This document shows, in pieces, positions 5,001-56,135 of a stretch of DNA of 64,000 nucleotides (position 1 is the stretch's first letter; each line of letters opens with the position of its first letter). The position numbers and the translations under genes are program-made. Below the pieces are notes generated by a model. The model had not been told where the DNA came from and searched no databases. It saw only the letters and a program-made list of their open reading frames with translations. The stretch comes from Pseudobdellovibrionaceae bacterium (GTDB lineage: Bacteria; Bdellovibrionota; Bdellovibrionia; Bdellovibrionales; UBA1609): the NCBI GenBank assembly GCA_018663505.1, contig JABJQG010000065.1, positions 3,315-67,314 of the forward strand, written 5' to 3'.

Positions 5001-5333
5001 ATGGAAGTAAAAGCAAATTTAAAATATGCAAAAGTTGGAACTCAAAAAGCAAGGTTAGTTGCTGATGCTGTTCGTGGTAAAGATGTGAATGAAGCCATAC
5101 GAATTCTAACTTTTATGAAAAAGAAGTCTGCAGAAATGATGAAGAAACTCATTGAGTCTGCGGTAGCAAATGCTGAAGTAAAAAAAGTGATTGATGTAGA
5201 TAATTTATATGTAAAATCAATTATGGTAAATCAAGGTCCTTCTCAAAGTAGAATGAGACCAAGAGCTCAAGGCAGGGCGTTTACTGTTGATAAGAAGTCG
5301 AGTCATTTTAATTTAATTTTGGATGAAAGATAA
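5001..5333 (+). CDS. rplV: 50S ribosomal protein L22
   Basis: MEVKANLKYAKVGTQKARLVADAVRGK. ATG 5001 is favoured over GTG 4998 by its spacing to GAGGAAG. Confidence 0.93.
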   Translation: MEVKANLKYAKVGTQKARLVADAVRGKDVNEAIRILTFMKKKSAEMMKKLIESAVANAEVKKVIDVDNLYVKSIMVNQGPSQSRMRPRAQGRAFTVDKKSSHFNLILDER

Positions 5334-44821: not shown

Positions 44822-44974
44822 GTTATACTCCGTCTATGAAATTTGCGTGAGTTCTCTTTAAAGGCGCACAAAAAATGAGTTCAGCGTGGAGGCCAAAGGC
44901 CGAGCACTGCCTGTCTGAAAGTTTTTAGGTGCCTTTAAAGAGAACTCACGCAAATTTCATAGACGGAGTATAAC
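44822..44974 (+). repeat. Composite hairpin element, copy 1: 44-bp perfect inverted arms (44822-44865 / 44931-44974) around a 65-nt loop carrying a conserved 42-nt core (44877-44918)
   Basis: Arms and core were read directly. The core GAGTTCAGCGTGGAGGCCAAAGGCCGAGCACTGCCTGTCTGA matches 52515-52556 on the opposite strand at 38 of 42 positions. Confidence 0.9.
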
Positions 44975-45035: not shown

Positions 45036-48000
45036 TTAAAAATCTTCTAAAGCATCTAGACTAATGTCCTTGTCTTGTATAGGCTTTAGAGAAAGCTTTT
45101 TGAGTTTCAGAACGGTCTTACTTTTTCTCTTTAGATCATGAACAGTGATTAACCTTGCTCTAAAGTATCTCTTTTTATGCTTTTTATACTTGCTAAAAGA
45201 CATCTTCTTAACAAGTTTTCCTTTTTTATCGAAGTACTCAGATTTTAATATTTTGAAATTCTTAATGTTTATCCAAGATTTAATTTTACTATAACTAGTT
45301 CCAATTTTATTTTTAGCAACACTTTCAATGATAACAGTATTGTTTTTAAGCTTTTTTTGAATGGTGTTTTTGAAACTTTTGTATGTGGATAAGCTCAGAT
45401 CCTCATAACTAAGGTCAGAGTCTAGAAACCTTGATTTTTTATTACCACTCAGTATTCTACGAGTCTTTTCGGTGGAGGGCAGGTAGAGCCATTGCTGCTC
45501 TTTATCATCTTTGTTTATTGTTAGAACACCAAGGCCTTCTAGGTCCTTCGGTTCATTAATTCGGATAAGTGCTTTTTGCTCATTTTTAGTATTTTTTCTT
45601 TTAATAACCAAAACTCTTTTTTGCACTTCATTATCTGAATTTGTAATTGTCATTTCTAAAAATGCTGTTTCTTGGGGAATTGAAGTGACTTTTTCTACTT
45701 TGTCTAAAATTTGTTTTGCACTCAAAGATTTGGCTATTGCTTGTGTAGGTATAAATAAAGACAGGGCCACAACAAGTATAAAGAAACTGTTTAGAGCTAA
45801 ACGTGGTTTAAATCCAATGGGACTGTGGTTTGATAGTATTTTTGGGAATCGTGCTAAGAAAGCGGGTAATAATACTAAATCACCCACTAGTCCTGCAATT
45901 AAAGATAATAACATAAATGCTCCAAAGGTTTTGTTCATTTCAAAAAATGAGAAGAGAAATACAGAAAATCCAGCAACAAGAGACAGTGAGGATATCAAGC
46001 AAGGTTTTGTTTCTTCCATAAGTAATTTTTTTATATCCACTTCGGAATCTTTTTTCAAAGATTGTCGAAGTTGCCCTAATATATATACTGTGTTGTCAAA
46101 AGCAATACCTAATGAGATGGCAAAGATAATTGCGATTCCAGGTTTAATTGGAGTTTGTGTAATAGCAAGAAAGCCAAGTAAGATTGTGGGTGGTACTATA
46201 TTGGGGATTATTGCCACCAATGACCATCGAATGGATTTGAACACTACACTGAGCAATATAAAGACTAAAAATAGGGCCTGAAAAAAACCATACATCATTG
46301 TTTTTGATATTTCACGATTAAGTGGGTGAGCTGTGGCAGCCAGACCTCCAAATTTTACGTCCACATTCTTGAAATTTTTATGGATTGTCGACTTAATATT
46401 AGAGATAACCAATCCCATTTTATTGTCAGGTAAATCAGCTAACTTTATATGTAGTCTTGAGGCCGAAAAGTTCTTGTTTGCAAAATGTGGAATTGGGTTA
46501 ACATCAGCCATGGAGTACATAAAATAGGATTCACTGATCCCTGCATCTGAATGAGGAATGTTTTTTAGCTCTTGAGGAGCTTTAATAAAGTCTGTTATAG
46601 ACACTATACTTTTGATTGATGGATTTGCTCTTAATGATAACACCAGAGTATCCAATGTTTTTAGGTTTTTATGAGATTTCCAGTAGTTTTTATTATTTGT
46701 GTCAATCATGACTTCAAGGGGAATCGCTCCTCCTAAATTTTCGCTTATAAACTCTGTTGTTTTTCTAGATTCATTATTTTTTGGTAGATCGTTAAATAAA
46801 AGGGCTGTCCAGTTGAGTTGAGTTCCAATGAGTAAGAATCCAAAACAAACAGTTACGATACCTGTTGTTAAAGATTTGTGATTTTTAATAATAAACTGGG
46901 CATAGGAGCTAATACCTAATGACCATTTTTTAGTTTTAGGGATGGGAAAAATAATCATAAGATTAGGAAGTAGTATTAATGTTCCCAAGCACCCAACAAG
47001 TACACCAAGAGAAACGGTTAAGCCATAGCTTGAGATCATAGGGACTTTTGCAGTGAGTAAGGTACTAAAGCCAACTGAGGTTGTTAGAGCGGTGAGAAGA
47101 TGTGGAACGGTAAGGCTTTTTAGAGTATAAACAATACTTTTAAATTTTGCTTCAAAATCTTGAACTGGCGAGGAGTAAAATACATCTGAAATTTTAATCA
47201 TAGTATGAGTAGAAATCGCTACAATTGTTATTGTTATTAAAATGGGTACTGTTGAAGATAAAATAGTGAAAGGGAAACTCATAATAGACATAAAGCCTAA
47301 TACGAGAATATTTCCACCAGCAATGATAATAAGTGAGATTAGAGGGGCTACAAATCCTCTAAATGTAAGTTTGAGTATAAGTAGAGCGCCGAGCAAAGAT
47401 AAGGCAACAAACAAGCTGAGCTCCTTTGACAAGAGCTGGGTAACTTGTGTTTTAATTGCAGCAGGTCCACCAATTTGAAGCTGTGCATAAGGTACTTCTT
47501 TATTAATAAATGCACGAATTTGATTGGCCATATTTTCATTTTTTTGCACACTAATATTTTTAAGAGTCACAATAATTGACGTGTGTTTGGCATCCTGAGA
47601 AATGAGTTGAGGGCTAATTAAGGGGTCTTTTAATGTCCACTGATTTTCATTATTTAATTGTGAAATTTCATAATATGAACCAATTGAGAAGCTATCTTCT
47701 TCTGTATATGCTGTGTCTACATTGGCAAGACTTAAAATACTATCTGTGGTCTCTAGGCTCTCTATATAACCTGTAATATTTTGAATATGTGTCAATTGTT
47801 TTAGATTCAGCCAACTTTGAGAAGTTTTCTGTGGGAGCGACAGTACAAAAGTATATGGTGAAAGTTTTTTAATCTTAAATTCTTTTTTTAAAGAAACATC
47901 ATCATTTAATATTTTATGGTTTTTAGGTTGAAACTGTTCGAAGCCATAATGGGTTTTTATGTTTTTTGCTTTTTGAAATGCCAGTGCGGTGATTATAGTG

Positions 48001-48089
48001 AACAAAAAAATGACAAAAACAGAAACTCTTTTTAGTTTTTTTTGTCTAGACTTTGTAATTGTATAATCTTTATTCATTTTTCTCCTCAT
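45036..48089 (-). CDS. RND/MMPL-superfamily exporter fused to a C-terminal LolA-like (outer-membrane lipoprotein-sorting-like) domain
   Basis: Two 6-TM bundles, each preceded by a large periplasmic loop, then a 13th TM (LNSFFILVVALSLFIPTQAIA). The last ~232 aa contain QWLYLPSTEKTRRILSGNKKSRFLDSDLSYEDL, typical of LolA-like sorting proteins. The alternative start ATG 48077 has AGGAG upstream. Confidence 0.75.
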   Translation of the reverse strand: MRRKMNKDYTITKSRQKKLKRVSVFVIFLFTIITALAFQKAKNIKTHYGFEQFQPKNHKILNDDVSLKKEFKIKKLSPYTFVLSLPQKTSQSWLNLKQLTHIQNITGYIESLETTDSILSLANVDTAYTEEDSFSIGSYYEISQLNNENQWTLKDPLISPQLISQDAKHTSIIVTLKNISVQKNENMANQIRAFINKEVPYAQLQIGGPAAIKTQVTQLLSKELSLFVALSLLGALLILKLTFRGFVAPLISLIIIAGGNILVLGFMSIMSFPFTILSSTVPILITITIVAISTHTMIKISDVFYSSPVQDFEAKFKSIVYTLKSLTVPHLLTALTTSVGFSTLLTAKVPMISSYGLTVSLGVLVGCLGTLILLPNLMIIFPIPKTKKWSLGISSYAQFIIKNHKSLTTGIVTVCFGFLLIGTQLNWTALLFNDLPKNNESRKTTEFISENLGGAIPLEVMIDTNNKNYWKSHKNLKTLDTLVLSLRANPSIKSIVSITDFIKAPQELKNIPHSDAGISESYFMYSMADVNPIPHFANKNFSASRLHIKLADLPDNKMGLVISNIKSTIHKNFKNVDVKFGGLAATAHPLNREISKTMMYGFFQALFLVFILLSVVFKSIRWSLVAIIPNIVPPTILLGFLAITQTPIKPGIAIIFAISLGIAFDNTVYILGQLRQSLKKDSEVDIKKLLMEETKPCLISSLSLVAGFSVFLFSFFEMNKTFGAFMLLSLIAGLVGDLVLLPAFLARFPKILSNHSPIGFKPRLALNSFFILVVALSLFIPTQAIAKSLSAKQILDKVEKVTSIPQETAFLEMTITNSDNEVQKRVLVIKRKNTKNEQKALIRINEPKDLEGLGVLTINKDDKEQQWLYLPSTEKTRRILSGNKKSRFLDSDLSYEDLSLSTYKSFKNTIQKKLKNNTVIIESVAKNKIGTSYSKIKSWINIKNFKILKSEYFDKKGKLVKKMSFSKYKKHKKRYFRARLITVHDLKRKSKTVLKLKKLSLKPIQDKDISLDALEDF

Positions 48090-52458: not shown

Positions 52459-52611
52459 GTGTCGTGCTTTGCATTGCTCGTAGTTTAAAATAGTTATTTT
52501 TAACACCAAAAGGCTCAAACAGGCAGTGCTCGGCCTACGGCCTCCGCGCTGAACTCGCTTTAGGCGCAAAAAATAATTATTTTAAACTACGAGCAATGCA
52601 AAGCACGACAC
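52459..52611 (-). repeat. Composite hairpin element, copy 2: 43-bp arms (52459-52501 / 52569-52611, one G:T) around a 67-nt loop with the conserved core on the minus strand (52515-52556)
   Basis: Read directly. The arms are unrelated to those of copy 1, whereas the core and the core-stem junction are shared. Confidence 0.9.
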
Positions 52612-52693: not shown

Positions 52694-52975
52694 ATGGATT
52701 ATTACGAGCCTGCTTCTGAGGCACACAAAAAAAAACAACGAGTAAAAGCAAGAGAGCTGAAAGCGTCCAACTGGTGGCGTCAACAATTGCAAAAAGGCCT
52801 GTGTTATTACTGTGGAAGCCGATTTCCTTCTACCGAATTAACCATGGATCATAAGGTGGCAGTGGCTCGTGGGGGATTTTCAACTAAGTCTAATATTGTG
52901 CCCTGTTGTAAAGATTGTAATACAAAAAAGAGGCATTTAACCCCAGCGGAAATGATACTTAACAACAAATCTTAA
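52694..52975 (+). CDS. Small HNH endonuclease-domain protein
   Basis: CYYCGSRF...DHKVAVARGG...NIVPCCKDCNTKK (CxxC...H-N-H...CxxC). Confidence 0.85.
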   Translation: MDYYEPASEAHKKKQRVKARELKASNWWRQQLQKGLCYYCGSRFPSTELTMDHKVAVARGGFSTKSNIVPCCKDCNTKKRHLTPAEMILNNKS

Positions 52976-53059: not shown

Positions 53060-54943
53060 GTGTCTAGCAAAATCACAACAAGTAGTACGGCAGAATACTT
53101 CGCTAAAAATTTACAGCAAGTGGGTTTCTCTTCTCCGCTTAAAGCAGTTTTAACTACCTTAAAAGAGGCCGTTGATAATTCATTAGATGCCTGTGAAGAC
53201 GAGGGCATAGCACCGGAAATCACAGTTCAGATCAAGAAAGTAGGGAAGGGTTCCTCAAAATCTGCTGACCTGATAGTGGTTACAGTTGAGGATAACGGGC
53301 CAGGGTTGGATGAAACCTTGTTGCCCAAAGTATTTGGTGAGTATTTAGCCTCATCTAAGTTTGGCCGTGGCCAGTGTTCTCGTGGACAACAGGGGATAGG
53401 AATTTCCGCTGCCACAACTTGGGCTCAGTTAACAAATGCTCAAGGTGTGAAAGTCATATCGAAAACAAAAAAAATGCGCAAAGCTATTGAGGCAATCATC
53501 GATGTAAATATCAAAGGAAATAAAGGGGTTATTAAAAACCGCAAATCCGTTGATTGGGATAAGCCACATGGTTTAAAGGCTGAGTTTAGAATTGACGGCC
53601 GAGTACAGTTAAACGGTGATGGTGGGATTTTAACATACCTTGAGGGCACAACGTTAGTTAACCCACATCTGACCTTAAACTATAAGCTTTTAGACCATGA
53701 TTGGGTGAATATTGGGCGTGTATCCGAATTTGTTCCACAGGTGCCAAAGCCTACTTTACCTCACCCACACACAATGAAGCTGGGTGAGTTTATGACTCAT
53801 GCTCATTTATTTGGTAAATTAACTTTAAAAAAATTCTTAACCACTGGTTTTTCTAGAATATCTGATGCCACGATCAAGGATTTTACAAAAAAGGGCTTAA
53901 AAAGAGCATACTTAAGTCAACCTCTTGTTAAATTTAACGAGACTGATTTTAAAGAAGTGTTTCGCGTGATTCAAGATACTGATTTAGCAAACCCAACAAC
54001 TAGGTCTGTATTAGTGGTTGGAGAAGAATCACTTTCTAAAAGTATTCAACGCTTGGGTGATATTGATTTTTTTAGTGTTATGACAAGGAAGCCCAAGATT
54101 TGTGATTTTAAACCAGTGGTGGTTGAAGTGGCTATTGCTAGATTTTTAAATAAATCTCAAGATGCCGAATCTCAAGGGGTACAACTTTTAAGATTTGCCA
54201 ATAGAGTACCGTTACAATTTGATAAAGCTTCCTGTGCAATTACAAAAGCAGTGGAGTCCGTGACTTGGCGATCTTACGGTTTAGCTCAATCGAAAAACTC
54301 ATTGCCTCAGGGGCCATATGTTATTGCGGTAAGCGTGACATCTCCTTTTATTAAATTTAAAAATGCATCCAAAGAAACTATTGATGCTAGTGAAGAGTTA
54401 GTTGAGGAAATTCGACGAGCATTGATGCAAGCGGGGCAGAAGCTAGGTAGACATATTCGAAGAGAGAATAAAGCGGCTGATTTAGAGAGAAAAATTGCTT
54501 ATATTGCTAAGTTTGGTCCTATATTGGTAGATGGTTTGGCGAGAATTGCTAAGGCTCCAAAAACCAGAAGAAATAAAGCAGAAGAGGGCTTAAATAAGAT
54601 TTTAGGCAAAGATTCGAAAGAGGCTGAGAATGAATTAAAACAAGCAGAGGACCGTTTAACAGCACAAAAAGCAAAACAGAAAGAAAAATTTGGTGATTTA
54701 AGCATAGATAAGGACCCAGCTGTTCAAGAATCTAAGCCAGCTGTAAAGGCAACTACAAAGAAGGCTGTCTCTAAGAAAACGACAAGTAAAGTAGTAAAAA
54801 AGGCTTCAAAAAAAGTTGTTAAAAAAGTCGCTAAGAAAACGGCAAAAAAGAAAGCTACTAAGAAAAAAGTTGTTAAGAAAAAAATAGCGAAAAAGAAAAC
54901 AACAAAAAAAGTCAAAAAGACAATTTTACGCAAGAAGAAGTAA
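53060..54943 (+). CDS. top6B: DNA topoisomerase VI subunit B (GHKL ATPase) with a ~76-aa Lys-rich C-terminal tail
   Basis: Bergerat-fold motifs EAVDNSLDA (N-box), VEDNGPGL (G1) and SRGQQGIGISAA (G2). The size and the transducer-like C-terminal half fit Top6B. GTG start with AAAGGA upstream. Confidence 0.85.
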   Translation: MSSKITTSSTAEYFAKNLQQVGFSSPLKAVLTTLKEAVDNSLDACEDEGIAPEITVQIKKVGKGSSKSADLIVVTVEDNGPGLDETLLPKVFGEYLASSKFGRGQCSRGQQGIGISAATTWAQLTNAQGVKVISKTKKMRKAIEAIIDVNIKGNKGVIKNRKSVDWDKPHGLKAEFRIDGRVQLNGDGGILTYLEGTTLVNPHLTLNYKLLDHDWVNIGRVSEFVPQVPKPTLPHPHTMKLGEFMTHAHLFGKLTLKKFLTTGFSRISDATIKDFTKKGLKRAYLSQPLVKFNETDFKEVFRVIQDTDLANPTTRSVLVVGEESLSKSIQRLGDIDFFSVMTRKPKICDFKPVVVEVAIARFLNKSQDAESQGVQLLRFANRVPLQFDKASCAITKAVESVTWRSYGLAQSKNSLPQGPYVIAVSVTSPFIKFKNASKETIDASEELVEEIRRALMQAGQKLGRHIRRENKAADLERKIAYIAKFGPILVDGLARIAKAPKTRRNKAEEGLNKILGKDSKEAENELKQAEDRLTAQKAKQKEKFGDLSIDKDPAVQESKPAVKATTKKAVSKKTTSKVVKKASKKVVKKVAKKTAKKKATKKKVVKKKIAKKKTTKKVKKTILRKKK

Positions 54944-54974
54944 TTTAACTTAAGATTTAAAAAGAGAGCGGTAT

Positions 54975-56135
54975 ATGGCTTTATTGAAAGTAAGAAAATC
55001 AAAAATTAACATCCCTAAAGAAGCTCAACTTATGTGTGATAAGATGTTAAAGGATCTTGAGCGGTCAAAACGACCCGTGTTAACCGCAGTAAAATGCTCA
55101 CTGGATAACTCCTTATATAATTCTAGAGTGGGTTACCTAACTCCTGGTGATAAGCGAGTAAAAACAGAGCTGAACGTGTCTTCAGTACAAAAGCTAGCCA
55201 GAACGGTTTTTATGTTAGAAGTATTACTTAATAATATCGATACAGGCGCTGTGAATACAAAACGTGAGCTTTACTATATGGCAAAAGGTTTAGTGAAGTC
55301 AGAAAAAGAGTTAAAACCCCTAGATTTTGAAGAGCAAACGGAAAGTGACGCAGTTATCGATTATATCTGTGATGTTTTAGAAGTTTACCGTGAGGAGTTA
55401 AACTGTTTTGCCAATGACCGTGGTGGACAGACATACTCTAAGGAGTTAATTGTTACTGAAACTTTATCTGACGGGACTAAGGCAACTGTAGAGCTGGGCT
55501 CCCTGGGGACCTCACCGTTTCAGCCAAAGAATAAGCCTCAAGCTTTACAGCTAAAAGCTAAAAAGAAAATTGATTTTTGCTTAGTGGTGGAATCAGAAGG
55601 TACGGCAAATACACTTGTGGCCAACGGTTTTACTAAAAGAAATAAGTGTATTGTTATGGGTGCTCAGGGTGTGCCATCAAATGCAGTTCGTGGGTGGTGT
55701 AAAACTATCCAAGATCAATTAAAAGTTCCAATATACTTTTTTGGAGATCTGGACGCCTATACATTACAAAATATTTATAGAACTCTCAAAGCGGGTTCTG
55801 CAGCCAGCTTAATTAGAAACTCTGATTTTTCGGCTCCACAAGTCCGTTTTTTAGGGGTATTGCCCGAAGATGTAAAAAAATATGACCTACTTTGCTATGA
55901 CGTGACTACTAAAGATGCTAGCGATGCACGTTCTTTAAAAAAGGCTAAGGATGCTTTGGAAAATGATCCATTTTTTAAGGATAAGAAAAATAAAAAGCTA
56001 GCTTCAATTCTTCATTGGTTAATTAAAAATAAGGTGCGTTGTGAACAGCAGTCCTTATTCTCTGTAAATCCAAAAGACCCACTAACCACCGAAAAAATTA
56101 TCCTAGAAAAGATAAAAAGAGGCAGTTACGTTTAG
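54975..56135 (+). CDS. top6A: DNA topoisomerase VI subunit A (Spo11-like: 5Y-CAP + Toprim)
   Basis: KRELYYMAKG (catalytic Tyr region), Toprim VVESEGTANTL and FFGDLDAYTLQNIY (DxD); 386 aa. Confidence 0.85.
   Translation: MALLKVRKSKINIPKEAQLMCDKMLKDLERSKRPVLTAVKCSLDNSLYNSRVGYLTPGDKRVKTELNVSSVQKLARTVFMLEVLLNNIDTGAVNTKRELYYMAKGLVKSEKELKPLDFEEQTESDAVIDYICDVLEVYREELNCFANDRGGQTYSKELIVTETLSDGTKATVELGSLGTSPFQPKNKPQALQLKAKKKIDFCLVVESEGTANTLVANGFTKRNKCIVMGAQGVPSNAVRGWCKTIQDQLKVPIYFFGDLDAYTLQNIYRTLKAGSAASLIRNSDFSAPQVRFLGVLPEDVKKYDLLCYDVTTKDASDARSLKKAKDALENDPFFKDKKNKKLASILHWLIKNKVRCEQQSLFSVNPKDPLTTEKIILEKIKRGSYV

Follow-up and report, generated by a model that had tools for sequence, protein, structure and literature searches.

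The well-described small repeats of bacterial genomes (REP/REPIN, MITE, ERIC, Correia and attC) are defined by conserved ends or by a conserved palindrome. The ERIC or IRU sequences of enterobacteria are imperfect palindromes, some 127 nt long, whose central region is highly conserved; they are located in transcribed intergenic DNA in either orientation. A palindromic stem with an asymmetric tip is known from the ITRs of parvoviruses and the telomeres of poxviruses, where the tip occurs in two inverted orientations as a result of hairpin-primed replication. Template switching, in turn, creates perfect inverted copies, homogenises the arms of inverted repeats and inverts the spacers between them (PMC8604942; PMC8794818 / bioRxiv 10.1101/2021.04.15.439925). 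An element with a conserved centre and locus-specific arms was not found in the literature searched.

Two hairpins in which only the centre is conserved, E1 and E2, are described here from the window, i.e. the whole stretch of 64 kb that was analysed. Both are quite probably copies of a lineage-specific, non-autonomous dispersed repeat, and as far as sequence comparison goes, the folded centre would be the unit that is transposed or copied.

Two long hairpins with a common centre

E1 is a hairpin of 153 nt (44822–44974) with its core on the plus strand and E2 one of 153 nt (52459–52611) with its core on the minus strand. The outer 44 nt of E1 are perfectly self-complementary, the stretch 44822–44865 being the exact reverse complement of 44931–44974, as given in the original prediction. 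When mismatches are allowed, the arms reach 53 nt with 94% complementarity and leave 47 nt between them. For E2, arms of 54 nt with 91% complementarity were found, with 45 nt between them. These are by far the two longest inverted repeats of the window, the next best measuring 27 nt at 70%. The predicted MFE was −96.5 kcal/mol for E1 and −89.3 kcal/mol for E2, with folding z-scores of −15.5 and −13.3 against dinucleotide shuffles, none of which contained the core.

E1 is composed of a 5' locus-specific arm (44822–44862, plus strand), a conserved module (44863–44933, plus strand; columns 12–82 of alignment A2, conserved in six copies) and a 3' locus-specific arm (44934–44974, plus strand), which is the reverse complement of the 5' arm. 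The 5' arm resembles neither another copy nor anything in the roughly 125 kb of host sequence compared, and its 21-mer has no match in IMG/VR. An inner stem (GGCGCAC/AGGTGCC), an A/U helix and an irregular apical hairpin make up the module. In E2, the conserved module (52500–52570, minus strand) is of subtype B, with the inner stem GCGCC...GGUGU, and is bordered by a locus-specific arm on the BolA side (52459–52499, minus strand) and one on the HNH side (52571–52611, minus strand). Covariance model R1, described below, scores E1 at 93.6 bits and E2 at 99.3 bits.

A 42-mer, GAGTTCAGCGTGGAGGCCAAAGGCCGAGCACTGCCTGTCTGA, had originally been proposed as the conserved core. It occurs once on the plus strand (E1, 44877–44918; A2 columns 26–67) and once on the minus strand (E2, 52515–52556, 38 of 42 nt identical), there indeed within a second hairpin, and nowhere else in the window. 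Its conservation holds, but its extent was set too small: the conserved centre really measures about 71–80 nt and includes a semi-conserved inner stem. The arms of E1 and E2 are unrelated, as had been stated, and BLAST finds only the core in common.

A coding role was considered for the 42-mer, and rejected. The 42-mer at 44877–44918 has an open frame to a TGA (EFSAEAKGRALPV up to the stop), but its substitutions are not codon-patterned, and the upstream ATG that would give a 17-codon ORF is present only in E1 and is not conserved. Position 44927 is A in the window and G in four other contigs, so that a C-G pair of the inner stem is broken here (C·A). It is the sole polymorphism seen inside E1; the flanking spacer shows two.

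Further copies and search for relatives

JGI metagenome contigs were scanned with a pattern that left the small apical hairpin free. Five loci were found, representing four new distinct copies (L011, L012, L013, which is the same as L015, and L014), so that six are known together with E1 and E2. The centres of the new copies are flanked by long inverted repeats as well, with unique arms. Total length varies between 143 and 163 nt. The GC content of the arms (32–41%) equals that of the genome, and that of the centre is 60–67%. BLAST comparison between copies aligns only 53–79 nt of the centre, at 83–98% identity (mostly 88–95%). In A2, the alignment of the six centres, the centre spans 71–80 nt and conservation extends beyond the 42-mer into the inner stem, of which two subtypes exist: GCGCC...GGUGU in E2, L013 and L014, and GGCAC...GGGU in E1, L011 and L012.

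From the alignment of the six copies covariance model R1 was built, which separates the true copies (94–106 bits) from everything else (at most 22 bits, given by the reverse strands of the same copies). With the filters switched off, the model detected no diverged or degenerate copies beyond the known ones in the window and about 120 kb of loci. A scan of 185,579 GTDB species representatives with GAGGCCNNNGGCCGAGCACTGCC gave only two chance matches, located in GC-rich coding sequence, and a scan of IMG/VR with the core pattern gave nothing. Rfam 15 at gathering threshold identified only a tRNA in the window; for E1 and L015, scans by E-value returned only generic plant miRNA-precursor hairpin models, far below threshold. 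The whole L015 copy had no blastn match in phage and plasmid collections. The claim that E1 is a copy of an unrecognised repeat family is thereby borne out by six distinct copies and by the lack of a match in Rfam and in the phage, plasmid and viral collections scanned.

The copies apparently all come from one species. The JGI sample that yielded the window sequence also contains the L012 locus, so that a single species is the most likely source.

Considering only the window, with its few copies and nothing else, two coincidentally related palindromes or an assembly artefact might be suspected. Four or more contigs besides the window contain E1, at least four contain E2 (identical in contigs L016–L018) and nine contain the L012 copy. 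As these originate from different samples and different assemblers, the element is not an assembly artefact. With six distinct copies and the gap in model scores between 94 and 22 bits, coincidence is already refuted and keeps a negligible probability.

Host and gene context

The flanking proteins point to an uncultured Bdellovibrionales/Bdellovibrionaceae-like bacterium, represented only in metagenomes of marine origin, among them samples from Saanich Inlet. The window belongs to the ordinary core chromosome, with genes for EF-G, a ribosomal-protein operon, MetH, aconitase, topoisomerase VI A/B and two-component systems. Genes for a transposase, integrase, recombinase or reverse transcriptase were not found in the 64-kb window, nor was a RAYT (Y1 transposase) gene.

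E1 is located 62 nt past the stop codon of an MMPL/RND-LolA-like gene (45036–48089, minus strand) and 103 nt before a response-regulator start (44718), i.e. between the 3' end of the RND-LolA gene and the upstream region of the response-regulator operon, in agreement with the original prediction. The product of 45036–48089 is a 1017-aa fusion of an MMPL/RND-type exporter and a C-terminal LolA-like (TP_0789-like) domain. This fusion family appears characteristic of Bdellovibrionota, with homologues of 31–45% identity named from Bdellovibrio species. E2 lies in the spacer between the BolA and HNH genes, which are divergent. Directly downstream of the HNH gene, which is small and YajD-like, follows a bacterial topoisomerase VI operon (53060–56135; B subunit 627 aa, A/Spo11-like subunit 386 aa), and this arrangement is conserved in a sister species (L037:943–3780). 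Alignment with the sisters suggests that the HNH gene (52694–52975) starts at the second ATG (52700), not at 52694. Just upstream of it, a promoter-like block (TTGAYN ... GTTA) is conserved in all four species.

All copies are intergenic, and five of the six are positioned 9–62 nt after a stop codon and 57–103 nt before the next start. They are flanked by housekeeping genes in mixed orientation (RND-LolA/RR, BolA/HNH, MerR/ABC, DksA-like/EF-hand, GH3). In four of five copies the upstream gene is antisense to the core strand, which is not statistically significant, and in five of six the gene starting downstream is. A rule based on the replication strand was rejected: E1 and E2 are oppositely oriented although the window has a positive GC skew throughout.

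No conserved promoter or terminator accompanies the copies, and no promoter-like site was found inside the core; sigma-70, sigma-54 and ECF promoter motifs were checked by eye on either strand of the core and rejected. A T-tract is lacking after the E1 and E2 arms on either strand, and a terminator scan does not report the elements.

Fold of the conserved centre

The centre is a hairpin. Its basal stem contains fixed G·U pairs and is followed by an A/U helix and by an apical helix of irregular shape, which is capped by GGCC-NNN-GGCC and carries a GAGCA bulge. The unpaired GAGCA and CGA nucleotides are invariant across copies. When the proposed structure was placed on A2, 94.8% of cells were paired, against 27–54% with the partner columns slid. 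Most covariation comes from the unique arms and could be purely a DNA-level palindrome effect; the informative signal is therefore the conserved part.

In this part, none of the six copies departs from G·U at A2 columns 15/79 and 37/57, and three of them have G·U at 17/77. Three pairs show compensatory changes: 25/68, which belongs to one of two competing core pairings (the first), reads U-A in place of C-G in E1; 40/50, in the apical hairpin, reads A-U in place of G-C in L012; and 19/75 is A-U or C-G, according to subtype. Each of the four one-sided changes in the apical helix GUUCAG.../...CUGAGC still pairs via G·U on the core strand, while the same four would be A·C mismatches on the complementary strand. 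With RNA parameters, the core strand is 4–7 kcal/mol more stable than its complement in each of the six copies; with DNA energy parameters the asymmetry disappears and both strands are equivalent. Because of the invariant G·U pairs, the changes that keep G·U and the strand asymmetry restricted to RNA parameters, these alignments imply that the centre would have evolved under selection on the single-stranded form of one strand, most simply RNA.

Several known motifs were compared and set aside. A k-turn reading with tandem G·A competes with the better-paired GUUCAG/CUGAGC helix. A hammerhead core, group II intron domain V and a resemblance to SRP domain IV were rejected by eye, the last having no Rfam match either.

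The fold might be taken for that of a functional structured RNA family. The core strand would then be transcribed (or read through) into a rod-like hairpin of about 150 nt, in which the apical module binds a protein and the perfect dsRNA stem of 40–50 bp serves as an RNase III processing or stability determinant, with selection acting only on its pairing. This reading, the main rival of the one favoured below, is possible, though less likely than not. The G·U pairs that are invariant or kept by one-sided changes on one strand only, the asymmetry seen with RNA parameters only, the invariant unpaired GAGCA and CGA, the compensatory change in the L012 apical hairpin and the position of the copies in spacers that are probably transcribed all argue for it. 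The antisense orientation of the core to the upstream gene (4/5) and to the gene starting downstream (5/6) argues against it, as do the lack of any promoter, terminator or flank conserved between copies and the lack of an Rfam match. Two further points against a structured RNA family come from the arms and from the sister species.

Locus-specific arms

The arms are 34–45 bp long and unique to each of the six copies, without similarity to each other, which upholds the proposed inverse layout with a conserved centre and copy-specific arms. They contain 0–2 mismatches per arm, all of them transitions and without strand bias (three G·T versus two A·C). Such a pattern is expected of neutral decay of a DNA duplication; selection at the RNA level, as in a structured RNA family, should pile up G·U in the arms.

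In about 125 kb of host sequence, matches to the arms were limited to chance AT-rich 13–15-mers. Likewise, 21-mers from five arms had 0 exact matches in IMG/VR, a search of limited sensitivity as it used exact matching only. A role of the arms as spacers or guides has no support from these matches. The suggestion that the stem acts as a copy-specific determinant found no evidence in either search, and nothing supports the bolder, though still conceivable, variant in which the locus-specific dsRNA stems are programmable determinants.

The ends of the elements differ (GTTATAC, GTGTCGT, CTATTAG, GCCTGA, CAGTAAA and GTGAGCT), and inspection of the six copies revealed neither a consistent repeat that could represent a direct target-site duplication nor conserved flanks. 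Inverted repeats longer than 27 nt without a core were absent from the 64-kb window and the other host loci.

Corresponding sites in sister species

Orthologous intergenic regions were compared in sister species, whose flanking proteins are 66–76% identical to those of the host, and the element was missing at two sites. The first is that of L012 (HU-MerR-[element]-ABC), for which two relatives with MerR proteins of 76% and 73% identity show no match to the covariance model. In L032/L033 the MerR-ABC spacer measures 170 nt, compared with 255 nt in the host; contig L034 ends 173 nt after MerR, ahead of the next gene. The second is the site of E2. In L037, with an HNH protein of 66% identity and full synteny (BolA | HNH-TopoVIB-TopoVIA ... 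aconitase-GyrI-AhpC-LplA), the BolA-HNH spacer is 87 nt, and in L035 (HNH 74% identical) about 140 nt, versus 270 nt in the window. The gene-proximal parts of these spacers align between the window and the sisters, and the element is missing. For the E1 site, the closest RND-LolA homologue is 45% identical and lacks synteny.

These comparisons suggest that the element was gained at two or more loci in the host lineage, loss in the sisters being formally possible. Absence at orthologous sister sites is also unlike a conserved RNA gene.

No inverted repeats of 20 nt or longer are present at the empty sister sites (orthologues of the L012 and E2 sites). This bears on a reading in which a mobile core inserts into the loop or centre of pre-existing palindromes or terminator hairpins, so that the arms are older than the core. 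Five of the six copies do lie 9–62 nt downstream of a stop codon, where terminators sit. The empty sites have no hairpin, and the element therefore most probably did not enter a pre-existing palindrome; in addition, coreless inverted repeats above 27 nt are absent from the window and the other host loci, and the arms have genome-average GC and no T-tract after them. Arms older than the core are consequently very improbable. Alignment of the E2 and L012 arms to sister intergenic DNA gave chance-level scores, the sister spacers being too diverged to show a native arm.

A hairpin of the same architecture was noticed in a sister species after a Fic-domain gene (L037:4974–5110). It has perfect arms of 21 nt and a centre of 95 nt with 55% GC, and within it, at 5004–5021, the left arm recurs in direct orientation in degenerate form. 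It was considered as a diverged homologue of the E1/E2 core and rejected, having no sequence similarity and no Rfam match.

Loop orientation and contig ends

In two contigs from two low-coverage samples (L007:1–100 and L008:1–100), the E1 loop is reversed beside the same arm and response-regulator flank, window positions 44888–44974 being joined to the reverse complement of 44821 downwards. Both contigs are short and end at the loop apex. Contigs L019, L021, L007 and L008, from different assemblers, all end within a few nt of the apex (~52537–52540 and 44888–44890). The element thus breaks short-read assemblies systematically at this point, copies are under-represented in contig collections for this reason, and the copy number is probably underestimated. 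Such breaks matter for MAG quality.

The reversed loop is either a real flip-flop or a low-coverage assembly or library fold-back chimera, and is kept as an unverified lead. An inversion of the spacer between inverted repeats by template switching would fit L007 and L008 (PMC8604942). An identical sequence would be produced by a low-k de Bruijn path via the shared canonical k-mers of the arms or by a fold-back library chimera. A strain-specific flip was rejected, the SNP pattern of L007/L008 not being distinct, and no flipped loop was seen at E2 (six contigs) or L012 (nine contigs).

If real, the flip might indicate an invertible DNA switch (mini-inverton), in which the loop turns over between the arms and changes what neighbouring genes see. 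The two samples with the reversed E1 loop at the same flank and arm and the orientation-specific core speak for such a switch. It is nevertheless a highly doubtful explanation: the two contigs are short, low in coverage, open to the assembly or chimera origin given above and without the marks of a separate strain, no flip is seen at E2 or L012, a segment of 47–65 nt is far shorter than known invertons, and the window has no recombinase gene and the core no evident promoter.

Possible origin of the element

Taking the evidence together, we favour a mobile hairpin module whose arms arise on insertion, when target DNA is copied by fold-back (template-switch) synthesis, and give this whole package a probability of roughly 0.45, somewhat short of an even chance. 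The spreading unit would be the conserved centre of 71–80 nt, and the arms would not travel along. An enzyme acting in trans, with its gene at another place in the genome, may recognise or copy a single-stranded form of it, most simply RNA. After the hairpin module has been copied, the new 3' end would snap back on the basal stem of the module, synthesise an inverted copy of the neighbouring target DNA over about 40 bp and then return to the proper template; this fold-back or template-switch synthesis could be carried out by a replicative polymerase or a reverse transcriptase. The product would be a perfect inverted duplication of local sequence, followed by slow decay to 0–2 mismatches per arm. 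Later template switching of the same kind between the two arms might make them alike again and turn the loop around. An RNA intermediate, or an RNA-level function of a master copy, might account for the RNA-type asymmetry of the centre.

Fold-back copying would explain the unique, near-perfect arms with their unbiased decay, as well as the absence of direct target-site duplications, of coreless palindromes and of a hairpin at the sister sites. The intergenic position 9–62 nt after stop codons (5/6) is typical of tolerated selfish repeats. Against the package stand the chance-level alignments of arms with sister DNA, where no empty site is near enough to show a native arm, the absence of a candidate mobilising gene from the 64-kb window, and the origin of all copies from apparently one species. 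The narrow arm range of 34–45 bp in all six copies could furthermore mean selection for a long stem. The original prediction had offered an RNase III-type dsRNA and a DNA fold-back that copies its flanks in inverted orientation; both readings still lead, the fold-back with the higher probability.

No known element is reported to leave its target duplicated at length in inverted form. A mobile element of a new kind, in which a module from an RNA or other single-stranded intermediate is joined at the target and its basal stem primes an inverted target-site duplication, would be conceivable but is unlikely. If true, its hallmark, the inverted target-site duplication, would be one that no description of a transposon, retroelement or repeat family contains.

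Should the target be the template of the arms, the insertion chemistry would duplicate it in inverted and not in direct orientation, giving a new signature for the discovery of mobile DNA. Long hairpins, dsRNA and cruciforms would then have a natural origin in the genomes of bacteria. If the structured RNA reading is right, a lineage of predatory bacteria would possess a new structured RNA, present in several copies, whose perfect dsRNA stems are unusually long. Repeat finders and RNA-motif pipelines would overlook such elements when they rely on conserved termini or flanking synteny, and model R1 offers a search route.

Comparison with known systems

The original prediction had placed the element outside the MITE, REP, attC and terminator classes, and their defining features were indeed not found in those tests that were applied. 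Like REP/REPIN/BIME sequences mobilised by RAYT, the copies are small, non-coding, intergenic, multi-copy hairpins, often just downstream of genes and lineage-specific, and recognition there also involves a strand-specific single-stranded fold. The conserved unit of REP, however, is the palindrome itself (20–40 nt, GTAG motif), whereas here the arms are unique and the centre is common. A short conserved palindrome with a conserved 5' tetranucleotide is absent, the ends of the six copies being different.

With MITEs the element shares a length of about 150 nt, an intergenic location, a non-autonomous nature and a hairpin-forming inverted-repeat layout. MITEs have shared terminal inverted repeats, direct target-site duplications and a variable interior; the present element has the opposite. 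Terminal inverted repeats common to the copies are absent, BLAST aligning only the centre (53–79 nt), and no direct target-site duplication flanks any of the six copies. ERIC differs in that its arms are conserved between copies.

Integron attC sites also combine a sequence of their own per site with a conserved hairpin architecture and a strand-specific fold, directly after the preceding stop codon. In contrast to the present element, where the apex is conserved, the ends are variable, the neighbours are housekeeping genes and no array exists, attC sites are conserved at their ends (R''/R' GTTRRRY, L boxes, extrahelical bases), vary at the apex and occur in arrays beside an integrase. Of the attC ends RYYYAAC / GTTRRRY, only E1 happens to begin with GTTATAC and the other five copies have none; a cassette array beside intI is equally absent, no integrase gene being found.

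Other systems were compared by single features. The short GC-rich stem with U-tract of an intrinsic terminator is lacking. The flanking genes include no reverse transcriptase, as would lie adjacent to a retron msr/msd, and neither window nor core contains the recombinase gene or the promoter inside the segment that mark an inverton. Unlike CRISPR-like spacers, the variable segments match no mobile elements (0 matches of 21-mers in IMG/VR, nothing with blastn of L015).

Template-switch (quasipalindrome) mutations resemble the arms in producing perfect inverted copies of neighbouring sequence in one event (PMC8604942, PMC8794818), but they are a general mutational process and not a family, and do not explain how the centre reached several loci. 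The hairpins of parvoviruses and poxviruses are termini of linear replicons, in contrast to the present chromosome-internal element with its only putative flip. In lifestyle, the element resembles REP/REPIN, MITE and ERIC as a small dispersed intergenic hairpin repeat, set apart from them in the defining features that were tested.
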